Positions 2,932 to 38,964 of a stretch of DNA of 47,712 nt are shown here, one piece after another. A program made the position numbers and the translations under genes. How positions within the stretch are numbered: position 1 is the first letter of the stretch; each line of letters opens with the position of its first letter. The notes under the pieces are model-generated. The model did no database searches, had not been told where the DNA came from, and saw only the letters and a program-made list of their open reading frames with translations. Origin of the DNA: a virus (Duplodnaviria; Caudoviricetes). The stretch is taken from positions 1 through 47,712 of IMG/VR virus record IMGVR_UViG_3300030613_000016. One strand, written 5' to 3'.

Positions 2932-3104
2932 TGTTATTTTGTGCTATTGAAGGCGACTCATCTTCTTTTTGTAGATTTTTTAATTCATCAAATAGGAAAT
3001 GTATGAAATTTAAAAAATTATTAAGATTACATAAAGATTCTTTTAATAGAAATATCATTGTATTATGTAGAGATTGTGAAAAATACAAGGAGACCCATGC
3101 CTAA
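2931..3104 (+). CDS. small Cys-rich hypothetical protein (not in ORF track)
   Basis: TAATG-coupled ORF MLFCAIEGDSSSFCRFF...LCRDCEKYKETHA. Confidence 0.5.
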   Translation: MLFCAIEGDSSSFCRFFNSSNRKCMKFKKLLRLHKDSFNRNIIVLCRDCEKYKETHA

Positions 3105-3504
3105 ATTTGATAAAGTAAAAGATTCAGGAAAAAGACAAGAATTTAAAACAGGTAGTGTGAGAGATACCAATATTGGTAAAGGTCGCTATGATTTAATCAG
3201 TCCTCTTATGCTTCAAAGATTAGCTAAACATTTTGAAAATGGTGCAGTTAAGTATGGTGATAGGAATTGGGAAAAAGGTCAACCACTATCTCGTTATTTT
3301 GATAGTGCAATTAGACATCTTTATAAACATTTAGAGGGGCAAAGAGATGAAGACCATTTAGCTGCTGCAATTTGGAACGTAGGAGCAATAATACATACAG
3401 AAGAATTAATTGAACGAGGTCTTTTACCAAAAGAATTAAATGACCTCCCAAATTATTTAAAAAAAGAAGATAGACCATTTATAATTACTGGAAAAGAAAA
3501 ATGA
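3097..3504 (+). CDS. dATP/dGTP diphosphohydrolase domain protein (DUF5664-like)
   Basis: GKGRYDLI, GAVKYGDRNWEKG, SAIRHL, DHLAAAIWN; SD AAGGAG before ATG 3097 (track start 3058 is probably too early). Confidence 0.85.
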   Translation: MPKFDKVKDSGKRQEFKTGSVRDTNIGKGRYDLISPLMLQRLAKHFENGAVKYGDRNWEKGQPLSRYFDSAIRHLYKHLEGQRDEDHLAAAIWNVGAIIHTEELIERGLLPKELNDLPNYLKKEDRPFIITGKEK

Positions 3505-17474: not shown

Positions 17475-19088
17475 ATGATAGCCAAGATTAAAGAAAATGA
17501 TTTAAAGATTTTTCAGGTCTTATCTCATCCGATTGGATGTGCCGAAACTATGTTTCATGATTTTGAGTCATTAGGAATATTTGATAAGAATAAATTCGGG
17601 CATATTCGTGTTTATCAATATCCTATGTTAAGTTATGATAATTTATTTTTAAATGACCCCAAATTATCTAAAGAAAAAAACATAGAAATAAAAAATAATT
17701 TAGCCGAAAGTTATAATCTTGGAGGTCGTCTTACAGGTAAATCAATTGTTTCTATTACAATAGATGTATTAGTTTGTACTTTTAATCAAGTTTATAAATG
17801 GGCTGTTATTTCTTCTTATGATAAACTTCATGTAATGGAGATTTTTGAAAAATTAATTAATTCTTTTGAAAATCATAAAATAATGAAAATTTTAAATTAT
17901 CATCCTTTGCGTAGTCCGACTTATAAATTAAATTTTGCAAGTGGATTATTATTAGAAAGTGTAAATCAAAATATTACTGGAAAGAATCCAGGTGGACAAT
18001 ATTTTGGTAAGCACTATGACAGACAATACATGGAAGAATCAAGTTATCTTAATAAAGATGTTTCTGGTAAAATGCTTATGGCACAATCTGAAAATGGATG
18101 TATAAATCGTTTTTCTGGTATGACTACATTTACAAAAACATCTCCAGTAGGTGAGATATTTTTTGACCTCAAGAATAAAAAGAAAATAATTAATCTTCCT
18201 TCTTATATTAATCCTACGTGGAATGATAAAAAAGAAGCCGATGCTATAAAAGAATTCGGTGGCAAGGATTCTCCAGGTTATCAGGTTCAAATCGATGGTA
18301 AAGTAATTGAAGGAGCAGAAAGTGTATTTGATATTCAGAGAATTAGACAAACTTATATTTTGGATAAAAAAGGAATGGGAATACCTATTAAATCATTTGA
18401 GGTAAACAAAGATTCATTTTTTAGATATAAAGAAATTGTTATTGTTGAAAAACCAATCAATGCAGAATTTTTAGGAATTTATTTTGACGTGGGAGAAGGC
18501 GGTGCCCCTTCGGAATATATTATAATTTCCAAAACAAATCAAATTTATAGATATATATATCGGATTACTACCTTTCAATTATCACCAGATGAAGAACAAC
18601 AATTTGGAGATTATCTAATAGAAATATTACAACCAAATATTATTGGTTTAGACCATTCAAGTGGAGTAGGAAAAGCATTATATAGTCATTTTATTAAAAA
18701 ATATCCCGAAAATATAATTCCTGTAGATTTTAATGCAAACATAGAAATAGATTTTGAACGAGATGCAAAAGGTAAAGAACTAAGAGATAATGAAGGACAT
18801 CCAATTATGAAAAAAGCTAATATGATAGATTGGTCTATTCAATGTTTAAAGAATCTATTCTATAATAAAAAGATACAAATGTATGAAGACATTAAGTTTG
18901 ATACACAAGTGAACAATGTTATTACTGTTAAAAGTAAACAAGGAAAAATGTTATATTCTTGTAAAACTGCAAACCATTTATTTCAAGCCTTCCAAGTGTT
19001 TGCGATTTGTGATTTTTTAACAGAATTGAAAAATATTAAACCTATACAAAAAAAGAAACCAGGATTGGGTGCATTTGGGAGTGCTTAA
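17475..19088 (+). CDS. terminase large subunit
   Basis: Walker A GGRLTGKS, Walker B-like YMEE, nuclease YFDVG and IGLDHSSGVG. Confidence 0.75.
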   Translation: MIAKIKENDLKIFQVLSHPIGCAETMFHDFESLGIFDKNKFGHIRVYQYPMLSYDNLFLNDPKLSKEKNIEIKNNLAESYNLGGRLTGKSIVSITIDVLVCTFNQVYKWAVISSYDKLHVMEIFEKLINSFENHKIMKILNYHPLRSPTYKLNFASGLLLESVNQNITGKNPGGQYFGKHYDRQYMEESSYLNKDVSGKMLMAQSENGCINRFSGMTTFTKTSPVGEIFFDLKNKKKIINLPSYINPTWNDKKEADAIKEFGGKDSPGYQVQIDGKVIEGAESVFDIQRIRQTYILDKKGMGIPIKSFEVNKDSFFRYKEIVIVEKPINAEFLGIYFDVGEGGAPSEYIIISKTNQIYRYIYRITTFQLSPDEEQQFGDYLIEILQPNIIGLDHSSGVGKALYSHFIKKYPENIIPVDFNANIEIDFERDAKGKELRDNEGHPIMKKANMIDWSIQCLKNLFYNKKIQMYEDIKFDTQVNNVITVKSKQGKMLYSCKTANHLFQAFQVFAICDFLTELKNIKPIQKKKPGLGAFGSA

Positions 19089-21403
19089 TGCTTAATTTTG
19101 CTGTAATGAATATTGCTAATGTAGGAAGAGAAATATATGTTTGGCATAGAATTGGCAGAACTCTTTCTTGTTTTAAGGATAAAACTTTCTACCCATATTT
19201 TTATTCTGTTGACCCTAAAGGACTTTTCCGCACAATAGACAATAAAAAAGTTAGTAAAGTAGTTTGTAGTCACCCTTCTGATGTAAAAAATAGAAGAGAC
19301 GAGAATTCTTATGAAGCCGATATTTTATTTACTAAACGATATATTATAGATAAGATAACTTCGTTTGATAAGGCAGATTTAAAGTATTCTTTTGTAGATA
19401 TAGAAGTTCTTACTAAAGAATTACCCAATTATCTTTATCCTGAACAACCTATAAGTTGTATTAGTTGTAGTAATTCTTATACAAGAGAGATTAAGACTTT
19501 TTGGATAAAAAATTATCAACCAGAGCAAATGGAAGACAATGAATCGGCGGAAAAAATATTATTAGATGAATTTATTAAATGGATAAAAGAACAACAATTT
19601 GATTTGATTTTAGGTTGGAATTTTATTGAATTTGATTGGCGTTATCTTTGTGCTCGTTATAAAAAAATATTTGGTTGTGAATTAGCAGAAATGCTTAGCC
19701 CAATTAATCAATCTCGTTATTTAGGAAGTTCTAAGCAAGAAATAGAACCTAATCTAATTCCAGCAGGATTAAGTATTATGGATTATTTAGAAATGTATAA
19801 AAAGATTTATCGTACAGAATCTTCTTATGCATTAGATATGATTGCTCAAAAACATCTAAATGACAAAAGTTTTAAAAAGGTAGATTTTAGTAGATTGTCT
19901 GATGAAATTAAAGAAAAAAATATAAATGATGTAAGAAGAATGATAGATATTGAGAAAAAACTTAAAATTATTGAATATTATGATGAACTTAGGCGTATGA
20001 GTATGTGTGAATGGGCAGATGTTACCTGGAATAGTAAGATGTTAGATATAATTCTTTTACGAGAAGCTAAACAAAAAGGAATAATCTTACCTTCTAAACA
20101 TTATGGAGAAGGAATTGAAGTAGAAGAAATAGGATTTGAGGGGGCTTATAGAAGGTGTGATACTGGTCTTTATAAAGGATTGTATAAACTCGACCTTTCT
20201 TCAGCTTATCCAATGGCAATTATTAATTTCTGCCTGGATATTTCAAACATTAAAAATGAAGGAATTACCATAAACAAGGTAAAATTTTACCAGAATGAAA
20301 ATGCTTTACTTCCTACGATTGCAAGAAAGTTAATTAGTAAAAAAGATATTTTAAAATCGCAACTTAAATCTGCAAATCCAGAATTAGAAGAAACTAAAGA
20401 TTTACAGATTAAATATAATGCAATTAAAGCTGTAGTTAATTCACTTTTTGGAGTATGTGGATTGAAGATTTTTAGATTATTTGATTATAGAGTAGCTGCA
20501 AGTATTACATTTTTAATTAGGGATTTATTACACTACATTGAAGATGAATTGAAAAAACGTAGTGTAAATGTAATTTATATAGATACCGATTCATTTTTTA
20601 TTGAATCTAGAGATAATCCAAAAGATTTATGCAATGAATTAATAAAACAATGGGCAAAAGAAAAATATAATAAAGATAAAATAGATATTGTATTTGATTT
20701 AGAAGGTCAGTTTGAAAAACTTTTTATTATTGCTTTATGCCATTATAAAGGATATTTATCTACACCAAAAGGTGTAAAAGAAGAAATAAAAGGTATTGAA
20801 GCTCGTAGAAAGGATAGTTCTAATTTTATCAGAGAATTCCAAACTAATCTTATAGAAAAAATAATGAATGAAGAACCAATAGAAGAATGTGTTAAATGGA
20901 TTAATTCAGAAAAAGAAAGAATTAAAACATTACCATTAATAGATATTGGATTTCCTTGCAGAATTTCTAAAACAGAAGGATATAAATCAATTCCAATTTT
21001 TTTAAGAGCTTTACAATATACGCAAGAATTAGTACCTACTTTTCAGAAAAATACTGGAGACAGTTTTTATTGGTTGCCAGTTATTCCCTTTGGTACATCT
21101 ATAAGAAAATCTAGTAGAAATAAAACTGATAAGGAAACTGGAGAAAAATCGATACAATCTTCAGAAAAAGAAGTTAATAAAGATGTTCTATGTTATGATG
21201 AAGATTGTTATGAGCATATTAAGGAAGTAAATTGGGAAAAAGTAATTGATAAGAGTATCACAATGAAATGTGAAGCAATCTTTTTGGCATTAAAATGGGA
21301 TTTATCTTTAATAAAAGAAATTAAACCTAAAAAAGAACGGAAAAACAAAATACCTACAGAAGAAGAACTCAATGAAGAACTTAAAAAAAGAGGACTAATT
21401 TAA
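19088..21403 (+). CDS. polB: family B DNA polymerase
   Basis: Exo FVDIE and GWN...FD; motif A DLSSAYP, motif B KAVVNSLFG, motif C YIDTDS; KGIEARRKD. Confidence 0.95.
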   Translation: MLNFAVMNIANVGREIYVWHRIGRTLSCFKDKTFYPYFYSVDPKGLFRTIDNKKVSKVVCSHPSDVKNRRDENSYEADILFTKRYIIDKITSFDKADLKYSFVDIEVLTKELPNYLYPEQPISCISCSNSYTREIKTFWIKNYQPEQMEDNESAEKILLDEFIKWIKEQQFDLILGWNFIEFDWRYLCARYKKIFGCELAEMLSPINQSRYLGSSKQEIEPNLIPAGLSIMDYLEMYKKIYRTESSYALDMIAQKHLNDKSFKKVDFSRLSDEIKEKNINDVRRMIDIEKKLKIIEYYDELRRMSMCEWADVTWNSKMLDIILLREAKQKGIILPSKHYGEGIEVEEIGFEGAYRRCDTGLYKGLYKLDLSSAYPMAIINFCLDISNIKNEGITINKVKFYQNENALLPTIARKLISKKDILKSQLKSANPELEETKDLQIKYNAIKAVVNSLFGVCGLKIFRLFDYRVAASITFLIRDLLHYIEDELKKRSVNVIYIDTDSFFIESRDNPKDLCNELIKQWAKEKYNKDKIDIVFDLEGQFEKLFIIALCHYKGYLSTPKGVKEEIKGIEARRKDSSNFIREFQTNLIEKIMNEEPIEECVKWINSEKERIKTLPLIDIGFPCRISKTEGYKSIPIFLRALQYTQELVPTFQKNTGDSFYWLPVIPFGTSIRKSSRNKTDKETGEKSIQSSEKEVNKDVLCYDEDCYEHIKEVNWEKVIDKSITMKCEAIFLALKWDLSLIKEIKPKKERKNKIPTEEELNEELKKRGLI

Positions 21404-22275
21404 TGGATTTATCTAAATTAACTAATGAAGAATTATTAAAACTTAAATCTAAATTCGCAGGGGAAGTGTCGAAAAAGACATACGGAACTTCCAGTTCCGA
21501 GAGTAGCGTGCAAGTCGCTAACCCTGCTCCAAAAATTAGTAAACGACCTTCTTATACTCAAGATTTTATAAAAGTAGAAATACCCAAAGCCAATGAATAT
21601 AATAAAGAAATAGATTTAAAAGATTTAGAAATCAAACAAATTGATTATTCATTAGCTAAAATATTTATCAAAGAAAATCATTATTCTCATACAATTCCGT
21701 CTTCGGTAAAAGTTTCTTTAGGATTTTATTATAAAGAAGAATTAAAAACAGCGATAATTTATGGTGCACCTGTAGGAAGAAATGTTACAAATTGGTTACA
21801 GGTGGAACATTCTAATTGTTTAGAATTAGTAAGATTATTTTCGGCAGAAGGTATGCCAAAAAATACGGAAAGTTATTGTATTAGTAAGTCATTTCAATTT
21901 TTAAAACAAAATTACCCCCAATATAAATATTTAATTTCTTATGCAGACCCCAATCATGGACATTGTGGATATATTTATCAAGCAACGAATTGGAAATATG
22001 TAGGAATTCAAAGAAGAATCTTAAAAGAAAGAATCATATTAATCGATGGAAAAGAAGTTCATTCTCGAACTTTAAATGCAAAACATGGGTCTAATGCTGA
22101 TGATAAATTAAAAGAAATTTATGGGGATAGATTAGAAATTAAAGGAGCATTAAAAAAATATGTTTATCTTATGTGCTTGGGAAATCATAAAGAATGTAAA
22201 GAATGGTATAATAAATTTACTTTTTTGCCTTATCCAAAAGCTCATAATGATATTATAGAAGGAAAAGCACAATAA
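21403..22275 (+). CDS. mom: Mom-family (GNAT-fold) DNA adenine modification protein with tRNA-encoded N-terminal extension
   Basis: HYSH, ELVRL...KNTES..IS, LISYADPNHGHCGYIYQATNW.YVG; TAATG coupling to polB. Confidence 0.85.
   Translation: MDLSKLTNEELLKLKSKFAGEVSKKTYGTSSSESSVQVANPAPKISKRPSYTQDFIKVEIPKANEYNKEIDLKDLEIKQIDYSLAKIFIKENHYSHTIPSSVKVSLGFYYKEELKTAIIYGAPVGRNVTNWLQVEHSNCLELVRLFSAEGMPKNTESYCISKSFQFLKQNYPQYKYLISYADPNHGHCGYIYQATNWKYVGIQRRILKERIILIDGKEVHSRTLNAKHGSNADDKLKEIYGDRLEIKGALKKYVYLMCLGNHKECKEWYNKFTFLPYPKAHNDIIEGKAQ
21457..21531 (+). tRNA. tRNA-Gly(UCC)-like, non-canonical, nested in frame in mom
   Basis: Acceptor GCAGGG/CCCTGC plus T-CCA; D stem GTGTC/GACAT; anticodon stem CGGAA/TTCCG with loop CTTCCAG; T stem TAGCG/CGCTA with loop TGCAAGT; 75 nt. 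Confidence 0.85.
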
Positions 22276-22276
22276 A

Positions 22277-22855
22277 ATGAACTTTAAAATAAAAGATATT
22301 GAAAAAAGATTAGGATTTAAATTAAAAAGAAACACATATGTCTTGGGCGTGGATACTGCATCTATTACAGGATTAGCCATTCTTGAAACCGATAAAAAAT
22401 CTTTAAAAATTAAGACTTCTATTTTTAAATTACCTATAGTAAAAAAGACTGATGAATTATCTGATAAATTTGTTGAGAAATTAGAGTTTATGTTATTATC
22501 TATTAGAGATTTTAAAAAGACTATTGCTGTAAAAAAATTTGAACAAAGAAAATCAATTTTAGTATTAGAAAATTCTTTTCTTAGTCTTAATCCAGTAACA
22601 TTTGGACTTCTTCGCATGCTTTGTGGTATTATTTTTGCAGAATTATTTGATAATTTTGAAGAAATTAAAATCATATTTCCCAATACTGCAAGAAAACAAA
22701 TAGGATTTAAATCTCAATTAAAAAGAGGAAGCAAAAGAGAAGAGAAGAAAAAAGAATTAATAAATTTTATCAATAGTATTTTTGGAACTAAAGAAACTTC
22801 AGATGATATTATTGATGCCATTATTTTAGCACTTAATGGATTAAAGGAGAAATAA
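22277..22855 (+). CDS. RuvC-like Holliday junction resolvase
   Basis: VLGVDTAS.TG, VLEN, DDIIDA. Confidence 0.75.
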   Translation: MNFKIKDIEKRLGFKLKRNTYVLGVDTASITGLAILETDKKSLKIKTSIFKLPIVKKTDELSDKFVEKLEFMLLSIRDFKKTIAVKKFEQRKSILVLENSFLSLNPVTFGLLRMLCGIIFAELFDNFEEIKIIFPNTARKQIGFKSQLKRGSKREEKKKELINFINSIFGTKETSDDIIDAIILALNGLKEK

Positions 22856-29298: not shown

Positions 29299-29922
29299 AT
29301 GTTAAAAACCCAATTTAAAGACAAATTAGAATTCGATATTTATCTCACAGAACAAAAAGTTCGACAAGAAAAAAATTATCTTAGTGTCTCAGAAAGAAAT
29401 CAATTGAAATCTATGCAAGAAAAGGATTATAAACCTACTTTTATTAAAGAAAAAAAATCAAAACTTCCTATAATTACTAACATAGATGAATTAAGAAAAC
29501 CTTGCCAAGAAGTAACTAAAGAAGATAATATAAAAGAAATTGTACAAAAATTAAAAGATACTCTAGAAAGTGTAGGGGGATTGGGTCTTACTGCTAATCA
29601 GATAGGAATTAATAAGAGAATTTCTTATGTAAAAATTCCTAAATTTATAAATAAAGAAATTCAATATAATGAATTTATTTTAATTAATGCGAAAATTATT
29701 GAAAAAGAAAGACCTATAAAAGTTAATAATGAAGGATGTTTGTCTTTTCCTGAAGTTTATGTAGATACTTTAAGATATGTTTTTTGTACTGTAGAATCTT
29801 TAAATGAAAAATTAGAATTACAGACAAATTTATATCAAGACCTTGAAGCTCTTGCGATACAACATGAGTGCGACCATCAGAATTCGAAAACTATTTTTGA
29901 TAATAAATGGAGGGCTAAATGA
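29299..29922 (+). CDS. def: peptide deformylase
   Basis: GLGLTANQIG, EGCLS, QHECDH. Confidence 0.93.
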   Translation: MLKTQFKDKLEFDIYLTEQKVRQEKNYLSVSERNQLKSMQEKDYKPTFIKEKKSKLPIITNIDELRKPCQEVTKEDNIKEIVQKLKDTLESVGGLGLTANQIGINKRISYVKIPKFINKEIQYNEFILINAKIIEKERPIKVNNEGCLSFPEVYVDTLRYVFCTVESLNEKLELQTNLYQDLEALAIQHECDHQNSKTIFDNKWRAK

Positions 29923-30581
29923 TTGAAATATTATTTCTACTAAGTCTTTTAGTGTGTATCATAATACATGAATTGGCTCATTTTTTTGCTGCAAAAATAG
30001 TAAAATGTAAAGTAAAAGAATTTGGTATCGGTTTTGGTTCTGCTATTTTTAAATTTATGTATAAGGGCACCTGTTATAGATTGAATTGGATTCTTTTAGG
30101 GGGATATAATAAATTAGATAGTGAATTATCTTATAGTAAAAATAAACATGCATTTAGTAATTTAAAATATAGAAATAAATTATTTATTTCTTTAGCAGGA
30201 ATAAGTGTTAATATTATTGTAGGTCTTATGGCTTATTTTATAGGAAAATACAGTATAAATCATCATTTAATTATGTTTGGATTTATTAATTTATTTTTTG
30301 GAATACTGAATATAGTTTTGGGAATTACTAATTTAATTCCTTTTCCTGCATTGGATGGAAGTTATCCTATTTTAGTTTGGTTAGAAAAAATATATGGCAA
30401 ACAAAAAGGTTATAGATTGATGAATAAGATAGTTAATAAAGGAATGAAAATATTAAATGATTTTAATAAAATAACATTAACTATTTTATGTACTCTTTAT
30501 AGACATCAAATACTTGATTATATTATTGCTGGGTTAAGTAATTTTATAAAATTTTTAGGAAAAATAAAAGGAGTATTATAA
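29919..30581 (+). CDS. site-2 protease (M50, RseP-like)
   Basis: HELAH, FGIGFG, AG..VN, NLIPFPALDG. Confidence 0.9.
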   Translation: MIEILFLLSLLVCIIIHELAHFFAAKIVKCKVKEFGIGFGSAIFKFMYKGTCYRLNWILLGGYNKLDSELSYSKNKHAFSNLKYRNKLFISLAGISVNIIVGLMAYFIGKYSINHHLIMFGFINLFFGILNIVLGITNLIPFPALDGSYPILVWLEKIYGKQKGYRLMNKIVNKGMKILNDFNKITLTILCTLYRHQILDYIIAGLSNFIKFLGKIKGVL

Positions 30582-31485: not shown

Positions 31486-32184
31486 ATGAAAATTAAATTT
31501 CTTAAAAAAATTAAATCTGTTAGTTTCATGGATACAATAAATCTGTATATGGAGATTTTTCCGCATGATTGGGATTACATTCCTGTTATTCGAAGATTGT
31601 TAAATAAAAATCCTAATAAAAATCGTAAACTTTATTTATTAGTTGCAGAAGAAAATAAAAGAATTATCGGGGGTTGCTTATATAGTTATTGGAAAGATAC
31701 TAAATTAGGTTTGCTAGAATATTTATTTGTAAAACAAAATATGAGAAGTAAAGGTATTGGTAGTAAACTTTATTTAAAAATGCAAAAAGAATTAAAAAAG
31801 AAAAATTGTAAACATTTAATTTTTAATATAGCAAACGATAAAAATTTTAAAAAATCAATAACCGAAGAAGAAATCAAAATTCGTCAGCGTAGATTAAAAT
31901 TTTATGAAAAATTAGGAGCAAGACCAATAAATCATTTTATTTATGAAAATCCATTAAGATGGTGTCGAATACAAGAAGATTATCATCCTTCTTATTTAGC
32001 AATGGATAGTAATTTTTCGGATAAAATAATAGGGGGGGAACTTTATAAAATAGTTAGAAGATTTTATAAAAGATTTTATTATGGAGCCAATTCCAATAAT
32101 AATAAAATTGCTCGTAAAATATTAAAATCAATCAATAAAAAAATAGATTACAATTTAAGACCTATAACTTATATTAAAAAATGA
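31486..32184 (+). CDS. GNAT acetyltransferase
   Basis: LEYLFV...RSKGIGSKL; RLKFYEKLG. Confidence 0.85.
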   Translation: MKIKFLKKIKSVSFMDTINLYMEIFPHDWDYIPVIRRLLNKNPNKNRKLYLLVAEENKRIIGGCLYSYWKDTKLGLLEYLFVKQNMRSKGIGSKLYLKMQKELKKKNCKHLIFNIANDKNFKKSITEEEIKIRQRRLKFYEKLGARPINHFIYENPLRWCRIQEDYHPSYLAMDSNFSDKIIGGELYKIVRRFYKRFYYGANSNNNKIARKILKSINKKIDYNLRPITYIKK

Positions 32185-33407
32185 ATAAAAAAATGTTTTG
32201 GATTTATATTCTTTCGGCTTCAATTTATTTTACACAGGGAATAGAAGGATTACCAGGATTAAGCCTATTCTTTTATCTTAAAGAAAAATTAGGTTTTACT
32301 CCTGAGAAAATAATGTATATTGGAACTATTGCATCTCTAAGTTGGACGATAAAACCTTTATGGGGCTATTTATGTGATAATTTCTTGTCTAATAAAATGT
32401 GGATTGTCCTCTCCTTATTAGGTAGTATTAGTATTACTCTTTATTTCGGATTAACTTCTTTCTTACCATTATCACTTTTAGTGATATTATTATCACTAGC
32501 AAGTTTTAATGCAGCTTTAAGAGATGTGTCAGTTGATGGAATAATGTGTATTGATGGAAAAGAAACTAATACTTGCGATAAAATTCAAGCAATCCAGTGG
32601 ACTTCAATTACCGTAGCATCTATTTTAGTTGGTTTAGGTGGTGGATATATAGCAGACCATTTTACTTATAAAATAGGTTATTTATGTCTTGTTCCTATTT
32701 ATTTACTTATTATGAGTATTGTACTACGATATAGAACAACTGTACCACAGAATAGAACAGATGGATTTGTCATTTCAAAAACTGCAAAATGGGTTTCTAA
32801 TTTTACTCCACCCACAGAATCACTTTTCTGGAATACTATTAAATCCTATAAAGAATTATTCATAAATAAAGGATTTTTAATTGCATGTTTATTTTTATTT
32901 TTATATAAATATAATCCTTCTTTTGGAACTCCTTTATCATTTATTGAAAGAGATATTTTTAAATGGTCTGGTCAATGGATGGGAACATTAGGAGCAATTG
33001 TATCTTGTTTTGAAATTCTAGGAGCAATTTTGTTTTTTAAATTGTGTAAAAAAATCAATATTAAAAAATGGCTTTATATTTCTGTATTCTTAGGAGCAAT
33101 TACTACATTGTGTTATCTAAAATTTACTCCAGTAACTGCGGTTGTTTATGGAGTATGCTTTTCTGTTTTGGGAATGTTTGTACATTTAATAGTAATGAGT
33201 TTTATGGCAAAATCTACAATTTCTGGTAAGGAAGCCACAAGTTTTGCATTACTTTGTTCAATTTCAAATTTGGCAGGAACTACATCTTCTTTATCAGGAG
33301 CTTTTCTCTTTCCAAAAATAGGATTACAACCATTAATTATAGTATCAGCATTAACTAGTTTTTTATGTTTACCTCTAATTAATAAACTGGAGATTAAGAA
33401 TGGATAA
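32181..33407 (+). CDS. MFS transporter, folate-biopterin (BT1)-like
   Basis: About 12 TM; YFTQG, WTIKPLWG..CD, DVSVDG, EATSFAL..SISN. Confidence 0.85.
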   Translation: MNKKMFWIYILSASIYFTQGIEGLPGLSLFFYLKEKLGFTPEKIMYIGTIASLSWTIKPLWGYLCDNFLSNKMWIVLSLLGSISITLYFGLTSFLPLSLLVILLSLASFNAALRDVSVDGIMCIDGKETNTCDKIQAIQWTSITVASILVGLGGGYIADHFTYKIGYLCLVPIYLLIMSIVLRYRTTVPQNRTDGFVISKTAKWVSNFTPPTESLFWNTIKSYKELFINKGFLIACLFLFLYKYNPSFGTPLSFIERDIFKWSGQWMGTLGAIVSCFEILGAILFFKLCKKINIKKWLYISVFLGAITTLCYLKFTPVTAVVYGVCFSVLGMFVHLIVMSFMAKSTISGKEATSFALLCSISNLAGTTSSLSGAFLFPKIGLQPLIIVSALTSFLCLPLINKLEIKNG

Positions 33408-34047
33408 TTCATTTTTAGAAAAATTTAAAGAACAGACTAAAGAAGAAATATCTAAACTAAATTATAAGAAATATTTTTATCAATATGACGAACCAAGCAA
33501 ACTTATATTAGCAAAAGAAATGAAAGATATAGAAACATATTTTAAAACAGAATTAGAATTAGATGTTTATCCAGTTTATGGTACATTATTAGGCATGGTT
33601 AGAGATAATGATTTTATAGGGTGGGATACAGATATTGATTTGGCTTATCTAAGTAAATGCCATACTAATAAAGCAGTAATGAATGAATTTAATATGATTT
33701 GTAAATTTTTAGAAGAAAGAAAATTATTATTATATCGTATAAAAACTGCTAGTCATTTACATGTATATTCTCCTACAAAATATTTAAGAATAGATTTATG
33801 GATTTCTTGGATTGATGAAAATAATAAGTATCATTTAGTATGGACTGTTTCTGGAGATATTGATTCTTCTATGATTTTACCTTTTAAGACTGTAGAATTT
33901 AAAAACCAAACTCTTCGACAAATGAATGACCCAATGAAATTTATAAATGAACATTATCCTAATTGGAATATTCCTATAGGTGGCGAGGCAAAAGATTGGG
34001 CTAAAAGAAAACCAAGATTTGAACTAGAACCCTGGCATGGAAAATAA
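33400..34047 (+). CDS. LicD-family phosphotransferase
   Basis: YGTLLGMVRDNDFIGWDTDIDL. Confidence 0.88.
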   Translation: MDNSFLEKFKEQTKEEISKLNYKKYFYQYDEPSKLILAKEMKDIETYFKTELELDVYPVYGTLLGMVRDNDFIGWDTDIDLAYLSKCHTNKAVMNEFNMICKFLEERKLLLYRIKTASHLHVYSPTKYLRIDLWISWIDENNKYHLVWTVSGDIDSSMILPFKTVEFKNQTLRQMNDPMKFINEHYPNWNIPIGGEAKDWAKRKPRFELEPWHGK

Positions 34048-34666
34048 AGGAGGAAATATGTATAAGAAAGAAGAAGAAAAAGAAGAAATTGGTAAAAAAG
34101 AAGACCGATATGGAGAAGAATTTTATTATAAACTTTTGAATAAACATAGATATATTCTTCTTTATGATGAGATTCATAATTGTTCTGCCGATGTAGTCTG
34201 TTCTAAATTAAGGGCTATGGATATTCTCGGTCATAAACCTATCTATCTCGAAATTAATAGCCCTGGGGGGTCTGTAGCGGATGGTATGAGCATCATTAAT
34301 ACTATAGAACATATTAAATCTCCAGTTATTACAATTATAAGTGGTCAAGCATGTTCGATGGCTGCTTTAATTAGTATTTGTGGTGATTATAGAATGATAT
34401 ATTCTAACTCATATTTTATGCAGCACTCTACTTCTGATATAGTTGGAGATTATATAAATTATATTAAAGATAGAACAAAATTTCTTTGTGAATTCGAACA
34501 TCGTACTGAAAAAATACTCAAATTAAAAACTAAATTAACCAGCAATGATATTATGAAGATTAGAACTGGAGAACTTTGGTTGTCGGCAGACCAATGCCTT
34601 GCAAAAGGAGTGGTAGATAAAATAATTAGTTTTAAACCTAAAAAATTTAAAAAGATACAATTATGA
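34037..34666 (+). CDS. clpP: ClpP-family protease
   Basis: INSPGGSV, ACSMA, FMQH, WLSADQCL..GVVD. Confidence 0.88.
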   Translation: MENKGGNMYKKEEEKEEIGKKEDRYGEEFYYKLLNKHRYILLYDEIHNCSADVVCSKLRAMDILGHKPIYLEINSPGGSVADGMSIINTIEHIKSPVITIISGQACSMAALISICGDYRMIYSNSYFMQHSTSDIVGDYINYIKDRTKFLCEFEHRTEKILKLKTKLTSNDIMKIRTGELWLSADQCLAKGVVDKIISFKPKKFKKIQL

Positions 34667-35274
34667 AAAAATTTTGGGTAATTAAATCAAATATTAACAG
34701 AAGACGCATAAAAAATAAATCTTTATTAAAATATTATTATTTAATTAAAAATTATTCTATTAGAAAAATAGCAAAAATCTTTAATGTAAATAATTCTACC
34801 ATAAGTAGAACTTTAAAACGAATGAATATTAAAACAAAATATAGATTAAAAATAAATCAAAATACCATGTATAAATTATATTATATTAATCATTTTTCGA
34901 TGGAGCAAATAGCTCGAAAATTTAAATGTTCGAGAGGTGTAATATTTAGAATATTAAAATTATTATCAATAAAAATAAGACCTCAAAAATTTTATTCAAA
35001 AAAAGATAGAAATGGAAGGTGGTTAGGTGGTATTTCCTTCGACCCCTATTCTATAGAATGGACTAAAGAACTTAAAGAATCAATTCGTAAAAGAGATAAC
35101 CATACTTGTCAGATTTGTCATAAATTTGGTAAACATGTACATCATGTAGATTATAATAAAGATAACTGTCAAGAAGATAATCTAATTACTTTATGTTTAA
35201 AATGCCATGTAGCAACCAATTCAAATAGAGATTATTGGTATGCTTATTTTAAATATATAACTAAAGGAGTCTAA
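34663..35274 (+). CDS. HNH homing endonuclease with tandem HTH repeats
   Basis: SIRKIAK.., SMEQIARK; IRKRDNHTCQ, HHVDYNK..C...NLITLC. Confidence 0.9.
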   Translation: MKKFWVIKSNINRRRIKNKSLLKYYYLIKNYSIRKIAKIFNVNNSTISRTLKRMNIKTKYRLKINQNTMYKLYYINHFSMEQIARKFKCSRGVIFRILKLLSIKIRPQKFYSKKDRNGRWLGGISFDPYSIEWTKELKESIRKRDNHTCQICHKFGKHVHHVDYNKDNCQEDNLITLCLKCHVATNSNRDYWYAYFKYITKGV

Positions 35275-35275
35275 A

Positions 35276-35875
35276 ATTTACTATTTTATTTCCGATTGCC
35301 ATTTTGGACATTCTAACATCTTGCGTTACTGTAAAAGACCTTTTCTTAAAGAAGGAGATTTAGATTCTAAAGGAAATTGGGTATCTCAGTATATTGCTAT
35401 TCAAAGAACAAAAGAAATGGATGAAACTATTATAAAAAATTGGAATTCCAGAGTTAAAGATGGAGATATAGTATTTTTCTTGGGAGACTTCTGTTTATCC
35501 AAAAGTTCTGAAGCTCCTGATAGTAGAAAAGATGCTTTTGATTATTATCGTTCACAATTAAATGGAGATATTATTTTCTTTAAAGGAAACCATGATGGTA
35601 ATAATAAATGCAAATCAATTATTGAAAGTATTGTTATTAATCATGGTGGAAAAAGAATTTATTTAACACATAATCCAAAATTTGCCAAAGAAGATTTTCA
35701 TTGGAATTTCTGCGGACATACTCATGGTAATGAAGGAACTTTTAAAAAATTAGGAAGAAAATCTGTTATTATAGATTTATCAGTTGATTGCTGGGAATTT
35801 CGACCTGTAGATATTAATGAGATTAATCAAGCATATAGTGAATGGTGCCGAAGAGGATGTAAAGAGGAGAAATAA
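35276..35875 (+). CDS. calcineurin-like metallophosphoesterase
   Basis: FISDCHFGH (upstream of the track start), LGDF, GNHD, THNP, GHTH; probable ATT start after AAGGAG. Confidence 0.85.
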   Translation: MYYFISDCHFGHSNILRYCKRPFLKEGDLDSKGNWVSQYIAIQRTKEMDETIIKNWNSRVKDGDIVFFLGDFCLSKSSEAPDSRKDAFDYYRSQLNGDIIFFKGNHDGNNKCKSIIESIVINHGGKRIYLTHNPKFAKEDFHWNFCGHTHGNEGTFKKLGRKSVIIDLSVDCWEFRPVDINEINQAYSEWCRRGCKEEK

Positions 35876-36597
35876 TGAAAACTGCACTTATTACGGGAAG
35901 TACTAAAGGTATAGGAAAAGAAATAGGATTGGATTTATTAGATAAAGATTATCATGTTACTTTTAATTATACACATGATACTAAGGGTGCCGAACTATTA
36001 AAAAAACAATTAGATGACCCTAGATTACCTAGAATAAAAGGAGATTATCAAATCATAAGAGCAGATTTATCTTACATAGATGATTTAGAAAAAATTATAA
36101 AAGATATTTATAAATTGGATGTTTTAATTTTAAATGCAGGAATAACTGATAGAACTCCATTTGGAAAAATTGCATTAGAAAATTGGAATCATATATTAAA
36201 TGTAAATTTAACTAATCAATTTTTTTTAATTCAAGAGTTAAAAGATAAAATTAATCCTAATGGAAAAATAATATTTATTTCTTCTATTTCTGGATTAACT
36301 ACTGATTCAACTTCTATTGCTTATGGAGTATCAAAAGCAGCAATAAACATGTTAATTCCTTATTTAGCAAAAGAATTTGCAAATAAAAAGATTACAGTTA
36401 ATGCAATAGCACCTGGATATATAGCAACAGAATGGCATAAAGGCAAATCTAAGGCACAAATTAAAAGAATAGAGAAAAAATGCATTGCTAATAGATTGGG
36501 CACTCCAGAAGAAGTTTCTAAAGCGGTTTTAAGTATAATAGATAATGATTTTATTAATGCTCAAATAATAAGGGTGGATGGGGGATTTTTAGTATGA
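35875..36597 (+). CDS. SDR oxidoreductase (FabG-like)
   Basis: TGSTKGIG, LNAG, YGVSK, VNAIAPG, VDGG. Confidence 0.92.
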   Translation: MKTALITGSTKGIGKEIGLDLLDKDYHVTFNYTHDTKGAELLKKQLDDPRLPRIKGDYQIIRADLSYIDDLEKIIKDIYKLDVLILNAGITDRTPFGKIALENWNHILNVNLTNQFFLIQELKDKINPNGKIIFISSISGLTTDSTSIAYGVSKAAINMLIPYLAKEFANKKITVNAIAPGYIATEWHKGKSKAQIKRIEKKCIANRLGTPEEVSKAVLSIIDNDFINAQIIRVDGGFLV

Positions 36598-37082
36598 CTA
36601 TAAGAGAATTCGACCCTAAAAAAGAACTAATCTTTGACCTTAAAGTATGTGAAGCCTGTAAAAGTTGTAAACGCTATGGACTTACTGGTTGTTGCCCACC
36701 TACAATTGGAACATTTGAATACTATAAGAAACTATTAAAACGTTATACCTATGGAAAAGTATTTGTAAAAAAATTTGTTGTAGATGACCCCAAAAATTGG
36801 CAAGAATTAGGTAGACAATCTTCATTAGAATTACATAAAATTTTATTAAAAGAACGTAAAAAATTATTAGATAAAGGGCATTATTTCAATGTTATTCTGG
36901 GGGGTGGTTCCTGTAAATATTGTAAAGAATGTTCTATACCATGTAAAATGCCACAATTTCGTGCTATTCCTATTGAAGCAACTGGAATAAATGTAGTAGA
37001 AACTTTAGCAAAAATGAGAATATTTATTAAATTCCCTATTAAAAAGATATTCTATAGAACGGGGGCAATTTTATGGGATTAA
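36594..37082 (+). CDS. DUF2284-like metal-binding protein
   Basis: C..YG...CPP; GGSCKYCKEC; PIEATGINV. Confidence 0.7.
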   Translation: MTIREFDPKKELIFDLKVCEACKSCKRYGLTGCCPPTIGTFEYYKKLLKRYTYGKVFVKKFVVDDPKNWQELGRQSSLELHKILLKERKKLLDKGHYFNVILGGGSCKYCKECSIPCKMPQFRAIPIEATGINVVETLAKMRIFIKFPIKKIFYRTGAILWD

Positions 37083-37525
37083 AAAAAGTAATTTATACTT
37101 CTGGAACTTATGATTTATTTCATTATGGGCATTTAAATATTTTTCTTAAAGCTAAAGCATTAGGAGATTATTTAATCGTAGGAGTTTCTACAGATGCACT
37201 TATTAAAAAATACAAAGGTATAAAACCTATTATTTCTTATAAAGACAGAGTAACTATTATTGAAGAATTAAAATGCGTAGATAAAGTAATAAAACAAGGA
37301 AAGTTTTTTGATGTAAACCAATTAAAAAAGTATAACATTTCAACTATTGTCTTAGGGGATGATTGGAAGGATAAAACTTTTCCCGAATTAGAAAAATGTC
37401 TCAAAAAATTAAATATTAAAATGATTTATGTGTCATATACTAAAAGATTATCAACATCTAAAATTAAAGAACAAATAATTCGCAATGCTGTAGAAATTAT
37501 TGCAGCACAAACTAAACGAAAATGA
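37073..37525 (+). CDS. glycerol-3-phosphate cytidylyltransferase-like (TagD family)
   Basis: GTYDLFHYGH, VGVSTD, GDDW, YT..LSTS.IK. Confidence 0.9.
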   Translation: MGLKKVIYTSGTYDLFHYGHLNIFLKAKALGDYLIVGVSTDALIKKYKGIKPIISYKDRVTIIEELKCVDKVIKQGKFFDVNQLKKYNISTIVLGDDWKDKTFPELEKCLKKLNIKMIYVSYTKRLSTSKIKEQIIRNAVEIIAAQTKRK

Positions 37526-38133
37526 ATTATAAAATAGCAATACTTATAACTACTTTTTTAAGAGATAATTTATTGTATAAAACCATACAAACAATTGTAG
37601 ATAATTATACAAAAGATTGTATAGTTCTTATTGCAGACCAGGGGTATGCAGATTCAGAAAAAGATATAATTATTGATTACTTTACTTCTCAAATACCCTT
37701 AGAGTATTATAAATTATCTTTTGATTGTGGATTAGGTTATGCTCGTAATTTTCTAGCACAAAAAGCATTTGAAATGGAAATTCCTTATAGTTTAGTTATG
37801 CCCGATTCTATTCAATTTACTGAAGTCTATAATTTTGGACAATTGTTCAATTTATTAGACAATAATACTCTTATTAGTTTTGGAATTGTTCCATTTAAAG
37901 ATGTTTTTATAGCCAAAACTAATGCCTTATTAAATCTTTGGGATGAAGAACTAAAAATTTGTGAACATGAATTTGCTTATTTTAATTATATTAAAAGAAA
38001 TTATAAAGTTGTTTATAATACAAATTTTATTTTTAAAAAAGTAAAATCTCGGTCTTCAGATGAGTACCAATCTTATTCTAAAAGAATTAAAGAATATAAG
38101 AAATTATCAGAGCAAAAACTTAAATGTATATAG
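37522..38133 (+). CDS. glycosyltransferase family 2-like
   Basis: ILITTFLR, IADQG, GLGYARN, WDEELK.CEH. Confidence 0.7.
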   Translation: MNYKIAILITTFLRDNLLYKTIQTIVDNYTKDCIVLIADQGYADSEKDIIIDYFTSQIPLEYYKLSFDCGLGYARNFLAQKAFEMEIPYSLVMPDSIQFTEVYNFGQLFNLLDNNTLISFGIVPFKDVFIAKTNALLNLWDEELKICEHEFAYFNYIKRNYKVVYNTNFIFKKVKSRSSDEYQSYSKRIKEYKKLSEQKLKCI

Positions 38134-38288
38134 GAAAATCGTTATTAGTGAAACACGAAGATAAGATAATGAAGGGAATAGTTACCAAAATATATAATGA
38201 AGATTTAGATATTAAATTAGAAGATGAAACTATTATCCAGAGAAAATTCTGGGAAATAAGGATAATTCCTGATGAAAAAAAAGAATAA
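38124..38288 (+). CDS. small SH3-like hypothetical protein (not in ORF track)
   Basis: MYIGKSLLVKHEDKIMKGIVTKI..., overlapping both neighbours. Confidence 0.45.
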   Translation: MYIGKSLLVKHEDKIMKGIVTKIYNEDLDIKLEDETIIQRKFWEIRIIPDEKKE

Positions 38289-38964
38289 AAAAGAAAAAAT
38301 AAAAGAAATAAAATTAGTCGATATAACCAAAATACGGTTTTCTCCAGAATTTGAATTTGAGATGCCTAATGAAAAAATCTCAGAAAAATTAATTGAACGT
38401 GGGAGAACTCTTAAAGGTTGGGAATTGAAAAATGATGGAAGTTTAAACTCAGGTATAGAAATCAGTCCTGAAAATAATAATCATCTTTTTTATAACAAAG
38501 ACTCCTTAATGCAAATTAAAGAAATATTAGCATTGGTTAGAGTTTATCGTGGAAAAGCCTTACCAACTTGTGGATTACATATTCATGTATCAACAAAATC
38601 TATGTCAGACAAACAAATATTAAATTTAATTAAAGAATGGGTTCATCGCCAAAAATTTATTATTAAAAGATTTGGCACATCTAAATTACGTCTCGAAGAA
38701 ACATGTAAATTATTACCCAAAAATGAATTGCATAAATTAACTGAAAAAGAAATACATCAATTTAGAAATAATTTGAGAACATCATTTCAGTCATACGGAT
38801 ACCTTGACGAAAAATATTACAGTCTTTCAGCAATTCATTTACCAAAAAATGATTACGGAACATTGGAATTTAGATGTTTTGAAAGTACTACCAATTTTAA
38901 AGAAATAAAATCTATTATTTATTTTGTTTTGAATTTTGTTCAGGAGGCACTTGAACGTGAATAA
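38272..38964 (+). CDS. putative amidoligase (COOH-NH2 ligase type 2)
   Basis: EFEFE, WELKNDGSL, EISP, TCGLHIHVS, TLEFR. Confidence 0.8.
   Translation: MKKKNKKEKIKEIKLVDITKIRFSPEFEFEMPNEKISEKLIERGRTLKGWELKNDGSLNSGIEISPENNNHLFYNKDSLMQIKEILALVRVYRGKALPTCGLHIHVSTKSMSDKQILNLIKEWVHRQKFIIKRFGTSKLRLEETCKLLPKNELHKLTEKEIHQFRNNLRTSFQSYGYLDEKYYSLSAIHLPKNDYGTLEFRCFESTTNFKEIKSIIYFVLNFVQEALERE

Follow-up and report, generated by a model that had tools for sequence, protein, structure and literature searches.

A tRNA-Gly(UCC)-like RNA of 75 nt, with its CCA encoded, lies inside the gene of a Mom-family protein in the window, by which we mean the whole stretch of 47,712 nucleotides of viral DNA analyzed here. 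Enzymes of the Mom family disguise DNA with glycine drawn from charged tRNA. The RNA has a tRNA-like structure, is conserved among relatives and is linked to Mom and DruA-like genes. We put at roughly two in three the probability that it is excised, is charged by the host GlyRS, and serves Mom as a glycine donor that is poorly taken by EF-Tu and the ribosome. This reading of the RNA as a nonproteinogenic donor is well supported for the family as a whole, and only partly so for the EF-Tu determinants of the copy in the window.

An RNA nested in the mom gene

The Mom-family GNAT gene occupies positions 21403 to 22275 of the window (+) and encodes 290 residues, with the Mom domain at residues 74–279 (Pfam PF25680, E 1.7e-42, 145.8 bits against a cut-off of 27.1; PHROG 1384; Mu Mom 8BV8, E 4e-16). 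Directly upstream is a family B DNA polymerase gene (polB; 19088–21403, +), which in some relatives is fused to the RNA and a Mom or DruA-like domain, and downstream lies a weakly RuvC-like gene (22277–22855, +; PHROG 159, E 1.9e-4). The mom ATG overlaps the polB stop (TAATG) and opens an 18-codon leader (MDLSKL...KF; 21403–21456, +), after which the RNA fills 21457–21531 (+), that is, nucleotides 55–129 of the ORF, in frame as codons 19–43. Since there is no in-frame Met between the RNA and the Mom domain, the Mom protein is read through the RNA.

The acceptor stem of the RNA (GCAGGGG/ACCCTGC) has a mismatched G7.A66 and is followed by A8 and A9, a D stem (GTGT/ACAT) with the D loop CGAAAAAG, devoid of GG, and an anticodon arm (CGGAA-CTTCCAG-TTCCG) with the anticodon TCC at 21490–21492 (+). 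C32 can pair with G38, which would leave a 5-nt anticodon loop, and this pair is Watson-Crick in 38/38 relatives. C14 replaces A14 and is able to pair with G21, while G48 stands opposite G15. The T arm and 3′ acceptor strand (21504–21527, +) comprise the stem TAGCG/CGCTA, with the pairs U49-A65, A50-U64, and G51-C63, the loop UGCAAGU after G53, and A66 opposite G7; the discriminator U73 and CCA close the RNA at 21528–21531 (+).

A sequence-only reading of this DNA had listed A8, a D loop without GG, a T loop reading G-TGC-AAGT, the G7.A66 mismatch, a T stem opening with U-A and A-U, and four intact stems, and every one of these features is present. The cloverleaf is the MFE fold (−30.4 kcal/mol, z −4.27), none of 200 shuffles was equally stable, and the element has a GC content of 53% compared to 26% for the window. 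The same reading took the synthetase identity elements to be otherwise intact, which is correct for G1-C72, C2-G71, C35, C36, and U73 but not for pair 3-70, where A-U replaces the G-C found in 33/38 relatives. As G3-C70 is a listed glycine determinant (PMC9976931, accessible part), A3-U70 may, judging from the sequence, lower the charging of the window copy.

Among the features expected of a bacterial tRNA-Gly, the RNA thus has the four-stem cloverleaf, C35C36, U73, G1-C72, C2-G71, and CCA, and it lacks the U8, A14, G18G19, T54-U55-C56, and paired 7-66 of a canonical elongator. ARAGORN did not detect it at default settings or at -ps90, only at -ps85, and an Rfam search returned no match to it. 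Elsewhere in the window, ARAGORN at -ps90 made a weak tRNA-Thr(AGT) call within the ClpP gene (34335–34422, +), which is probably a chance match.

Several other features of the window were recorded. The polB C terminus (EELNEELKKRGLI) and the Mom leader (DLSKLTNEELLKL), within 21340–21456, form short conserved motifs of helical appearance, which may be what remains of docking or helix-extension-helix elements. Scans for promoters and terminators stayed at the level of chance (41 versus 44.0 and 2 versus 1.5, respectively), and no integrase was found in the 46 of 98 ORFs scanned. A cluster at 31486–38964 holds genes for a second GNAT, a BT1/MFS transporter, a LicD-like protein, ClpP, a short-chain dehydrogenase, DUF2284, a cytidylyltransferase, GT2, and an amidoligase, and is possibly another modification pathway. 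Peptide deformylase, M50 peptidase, and dATP/dGTP diphosphohydrolase genes lie at 29299–30581 and 3058–3504.

Conservation among relatives

Relatives were sought in metagenomes with a pattern restricted to the D arm, G1C2/G71C72, and CCA; the anticodon, position 8, and base 73 were left free. It returned 110 matches, and these fell into 32 that fold, with two mismatches or fewer, and 78 with six or more. Every one of the 32 folding matches, a set that includes the window's own record and several duplicates, has A8 and C35C36, and 31 each have TCC and U73. Across 28 distinct copies, 96.7% of cells were paired and compensatory change was present in all four stems; 157 changes were double-sided, whereas shuffles gave 41.7 and slid controls no more than 31, these being counts from related sequences rather than probabilities. 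The earlier argument that the stems speak against simple decay is borne out, and because the deviations recur and the stems covary, a random, unconserved pseudo-tRNA is largely ruled out.

Pooling all loci that share this D arm gave 38 distinct elements. The search patterns themselves required G1, C2, G71, C72, and the D stem, whose conservation in this set is therefore not independent evidence. A8, the Watson-Crick pair 32-38, and G48 are present in 38/38 and U73 in 37/38, although A8 was imposed in a genome scan that contributed three elements, and CC was imposed there and in one further scan. CCA is encoded in 30/38 and absent in the other 8. The sequence-only reading had proposed an alignment to see whether the deviations recur; A8 does, as does the 7.66 mismatch (23/38), and the stems covary, whereas GG and TTC are each kept in 13/38. 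GG and TTC occur together (Fisher p 4e-6, a value that ignores kinship among the elements), and elbow loss is, on these sequences, the trait of a sub-lineage.

The anticodon is TCC in 29 of the 38 elements and ACC in 9, and in 47 loci we counted 25 ACC, 18 TCC, and 4 CCC; GCC was found in none of the 38 elements or 47 loci. The ACC anticodon, which is rare in bacterial tRNA-Gly, is mostly accompanied by G33 or C33 (L269, L304, L301, L320, L321, L316, L319, L221, and L344). Decoding positions are thus relaxed (wobble base U in 29 and A in 9, U33 in 27/38, and 32-38 paired in all 38), as opposed to the held charging positions. The family core is rebuilt in a fixed way, with the positions for decoding drifting and those for charging held.

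Other searches yielded less. An initial short DNA pattern was discarded, 50 of its 52 matches being due to chance. A blastn search of the RNA element against cultured phages gave no match, and the cultured carriers described below were located via Mom; a viral search with a single protein also gave no match. Of 139 new Mom representatives scanned for a peptide motif, 3 had tRNA-like peptides. P0023 and P0074 look tRNA-derived by peptide only, and P0074 was the sole match when its own tRNA-like start was used as a region query.

Linkage to Mom and DruA-like genes

On viral contigs, a Mom or DruA-like ORF was present at 23 of 24 folding matches and at none of 21 nonfolding ones, as judged by Mom/DruA-like profiles that were partly built from those same loci, with Pfam confirming the subset of ORFs that it scanned. 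Likewise, 34 of the 38 distinct elements fall within a Mom or DruA-like ORF or at its end. The remainder comprise a truncated Mom (L243), a contig edge (L238), a locus whose Mom is gone (L166), and one without Mom within 2.5–3 kb (L184/L351). In L166 (644–718, −), a mini-ORF that lies between polB and the RuvC-like gene still contains the RNA and is not followed by a Mom domain.

The position of the RNA relative to the protein varies. It may lie 5′ or 3′ of the Mom domain, in frame 0 or 1, and sometimes across the stop; in phage B2_17 it follows the stop, and in phage Appa it is encoded on the other strand. This variety of ends, frames, and strands argues that the element acts as an RNA and not as a peptide or a 5′ switch. 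The Appa copy (L440, 1160–1234, −) is an annotated tRNA-Gly(CCC) with A8, convergent on the mom gene.

A second Mom lineage carries the element at the 3′ end of the domain in 73 of 80 loci near the L320 Mom, a set of 59 distinct RNAs once near-duplicates are removed, which includes the query and a few loci already found RNA-first. Over 260,658 bases, the loose scan used on these loci gave a background of 73 matches at other places and 87 on the reverse strand. Of the 59 distinct RNAs, 34 lack an encoded CCA. After the Mom 3′ end of L408, L409, L432, L397, and L401, we noted by eye shorter tRNA-like ends whose D arm is reduced or absent and which the scanner had missed.

Among the matches listed, at least 3 of the 80 viral Mom loci nearest the window Mom carry the element, and of 11 hand-picked cultured records, 5 are carriers (Arthrobacter phages Shade and Sicarius2, Salinibacter B2_17, Pseudanabaena Pan3, and Microbacterium Appa) and 6, including Mu, are not; no element was found within 2.2 kb around Mu mom. 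With so few close relatives and only some cultured records carrying it, the element is dispensable. On a tree of 63 Mom domains, the 5′ type needs at least eight changes, and the sequences suggest that Mom domains have been swapped behind a resident polB-leader-RNA cassette.

The same RNA occurs with DruA-like (PF14236) genes in L216, L157, L211, L301, and L344, and in L231, which is assigned by our own profile only. After trimming of the RNA-coded peptide, the DruA-like and Mom families gave a weak match in hhalign (75.6%, E 2.4e-5); a value of 97.9% was rejected as inflated by the shared RNA-coded peptide. The sequences suggest that RNA-bearing DruA-like proteins also use Gly-tRNA.

Unusual arrangements were observed at several loci. 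Single ORFs fuse polB, the RNA, and a Mom or DruA-like domain (L140/L335, L344, P0016, and L323), and in L323, by eye, a long polymerase-like region comes after Mom and the RNA. In L054/L314, two Mom genes of different subfamilies stand in tandem, and each begins with an identical copy of the leader and RNA. In L210, the RNA-bearing start is split from the Mom domain by a frameshift, which lies close to an A-rich stretch immediately 3′ of the RNA and may reflect an assembly error, a pseudogene, or recoding.

Predicted affinity for EF-Tu

The sequence-only reading had proposed that this RNA avoids EF-Tu. We estimated affinity with a published three-pair T-stem model (PMC3239215, accessible part), in which the 7.66 mismatch, the elbow, and the anticodon loop are not scored, and regarded as weak binders those RNAs lying more than 1.3 kcal/mol above the class mean. 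The T stem of the window copy scores −10.3 kcal/mol, within one sigma of the Gly-UCC mean (−10.8 ± 0.68) and short of that threshold, a near-ordinary value owed to the tight G51-C63 pair that it keeps. The 38 elements have a mean of −9.53, and 20 of them pass or equal the threshold, scoring −9.5, the staphylococcal value, or weaker; 13 are at −10.3 or tighter, and none reaches −10.8. An A bulges from the 3′ strand of the T stem, between pairs 50-64 and 51-63, in 51 of the 59 distinct RNAs of the second lineage. This bulge sits in the surface read by EF-Tu and would be expected to affect binding.

EF-Tu avoidance is therefore predicted for the family, from its mean score and bulged T stems together with the unscored 7.66 mismatch, and not for the window copy, whose T stem is no outlier. 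Were the latter excluded from EF-Tu, the cause would, under this model, have to be its 7.66 mismatch, its lost elbow, or its 5-nt anticodon loop.

Proposed function and alternatives

In the mechanism that we propose, the tRNA-Gly-like RNA would be cut out of the mom transcript and glycylated by the host GlyRS via the retained G1-C72, C2-G71, C35, C36, and U73. The charged RNA would be weakly used by EF-Tu or in the A site, decoding poorly or not at all, and Mom would prefer it as a dedicated glycine donor. Because the Mom protein is translated through the RNA, each transcript would give either enzyme or carrier. With a slight tilt of the evidence, we also favor a wider view, in which many phages encode a translation-avoiding glycine-carrier RNA within the gene of a DNA-modifying enzyme. 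Such RNAs would together be tRNA-like cofactors of DNA hypermodification, a class of their own, dodging EF-Tu in several independent ways (weak pairs, the 7.66 mismatch, and a bulged T stem), and DruA-like (PF14236) proteins would be Gly-tRNA-dependent modifiers.

If the RNA is instead a real, charged tRNA-Gly that tops up a pool drained by Mom and still translates, its oddities would stem from the overlapping reading frame and relaxed selection. This would suit the near-normal EF-Tu affinity predicted for the window copy, its U33, A37, U54, and A58, and the predominance of GGA among glycine codons in the sampled window genes (117/205); moreover, Mu Mom accepts any isoacceptor (PMC13219725, accessible part), and C14 appears to avoid an in-frame TAG/TAA. 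We nevertheless consider it unlikely, as the ACC anticodons, G33 or C33, bulged T stems, and reduced D arms of relatives hardly fit decoding. A8 is also found in the B2_17 and Appa copies, which lie outside any ORF, and coding overlap is thus no explanation for it.

A cis-acting tRNA mimic within the mom mRNA, serving as a binding site for Mom or GlyRS or as a target of tRNA-processing nucleases so as to limit a toxic enzyme, strikes us as a little less probable still. The fold usually lies within the mom ORF, so that cutting there would inactivate the mRNA; the mom gene of Mu is itself under a translational regulator, Com; and CCA is often not encoded. Such a role is nonetheless weakened by copies located 5′, 3′, beyond the stop, or on the opposite strand, by a U73 held even where CCA is not encoded, and by the persistence of the RNA as a mini-ORF after Mom loss in L166. 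Limitation of the enzyme in cis is compatible with the RNA being a glycine donor and could be a side effect of it.

A decayed tRNA or integration-site relic without current function, which rejection by ARAGORN (default) and Rfam and the patchy occurrence across Mom genes might suggest, is largely refuted by full-length compensatory change in all four stems, and the invariant noncanonical bases, the 23/24 versus 0/21 linkage, and the lack of an integrase in the scanned ORFs leave it very improbable. Altered anticodon loops could resist cleavage by tRNA nucleases, but a decoy or spare tRNA against host antiphage nucleases, placed near mom by chance of operon timing, is scarcely credible when glycine is the only identity seen and the element keeps to the ends of Mom/DruA genes in unrelated phages.

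Were the donor function to hold, the RNA would be a tRNA specialized to feed a DNA-modifying enzyme, a second answer to the competition with EF-Tu known from staphylococcal cell-wall synthesis, and an account of the "pseudo-tRNA" reported in 2011. It would also serve as a sequence marker for the substrate of uncharacterized Mom- and DruA-like enzymes, an RNA of which annotation tools miss many copies. Three components are already in print, in the accessible parts of the respective papers: nesting in mom (PMC3146451), the Gly-tRNA donor of Mom (PMC13219725), and nonribosomal tRNA-Gly (PMC7826273). A dedicated nonribosomal donor for DNA modification was not found in the openly accessible literature that we searched.

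Comparison with known systems

In Mu, Mom takes glycine from Gly-tRNA-Gly and attaches it to adenine N6, any of the three Escherichia coli isoacceptors being accepted; 6-NcmdA formation from Gly-tRNA-Gly has been demonstrated for Mu Mom and screened homologues only (PMC13219725, accessible part). The window Mom is a homologous GNAT (PF25680; PDB 8BV8, E 4e-16), and in a pairwise alignment, six of the listed active-site residues of Mu Mom (H58, Y59, R111, S124, D149, and Y159) are identical in it, whereas R151, which is listed with them and essential in Mu, is replaced by N184, and W48 by S83. Mu Mom differs further in using host tRNA-Gly, with no element near its gene. The accessible text of PMC13219725 and two of its three supplements contain no mention of a tRNA encoded with Mom, nor does the accessible part of PMC7824862 mention such an RNA.

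The closest description is that of McMurdie in 2011, a conserved 76-bp tRNA-Gly-like "pseudo-tRNA" in a mom homologue of 16 Dehalococcoides ssrA genomic islands, for which no function is proposed in the accessible part of the paper (PMC3146451). We liken the two by description, not by sequence. That element lies in the first 150 bp of a gene of ~270 amino acids, and the window RNA is likewise early in mom; it has a DCC anticodon with a variable first base and a 5-nt loop, compared to TCC and a 5-nt loop here. It differs in residing on a genomic island and not in a lytic-type phage, and Mom was then taken for a methylase.

The parallel with the staphylococcal nonproteogenic tRNA-Gly species NP1–NP3, which serve Fem transferases, is one of working alike, and we claim no homology. 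In that system, FmhB is inhibited through EF-Tu sequestration of Gly-tRNA (PMC7826273, accessible part). The NP genes are free-standing, chromosomal, and of a staphylococcal lineage, and their product is peptidoglycan, not DNA. The likeness to staphylococcal RNAs that the sequence-only reading had drawn holds for the T and D loops and extends to the anticodon loop, but not to position 8, where the staphylococcal RNAs retain U8, carried as 4-thiouridine (PMC7826273), and the phage RNA has A8, nor to the T stem, which is A49-U65/U50-A64/A51-U63 (−9.5) in staphylococci and U-A/A-U/G-C (−10.3) in the window. The accessible parts of the published record confirm the absence of G18/G19 (PMC4574755) and the altered T loops, TGC or TGT (PMC7826273), in these tRNAs. 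The staphylococcal RNAs thus share with the window RNA the UCC anticodon, a TGC T loop, the lack of G18G19, and a six-pair anticodon stem with a 5-nt loop, and in both systems the partner is a tRNA-dependent transferase of the GNAT fold.
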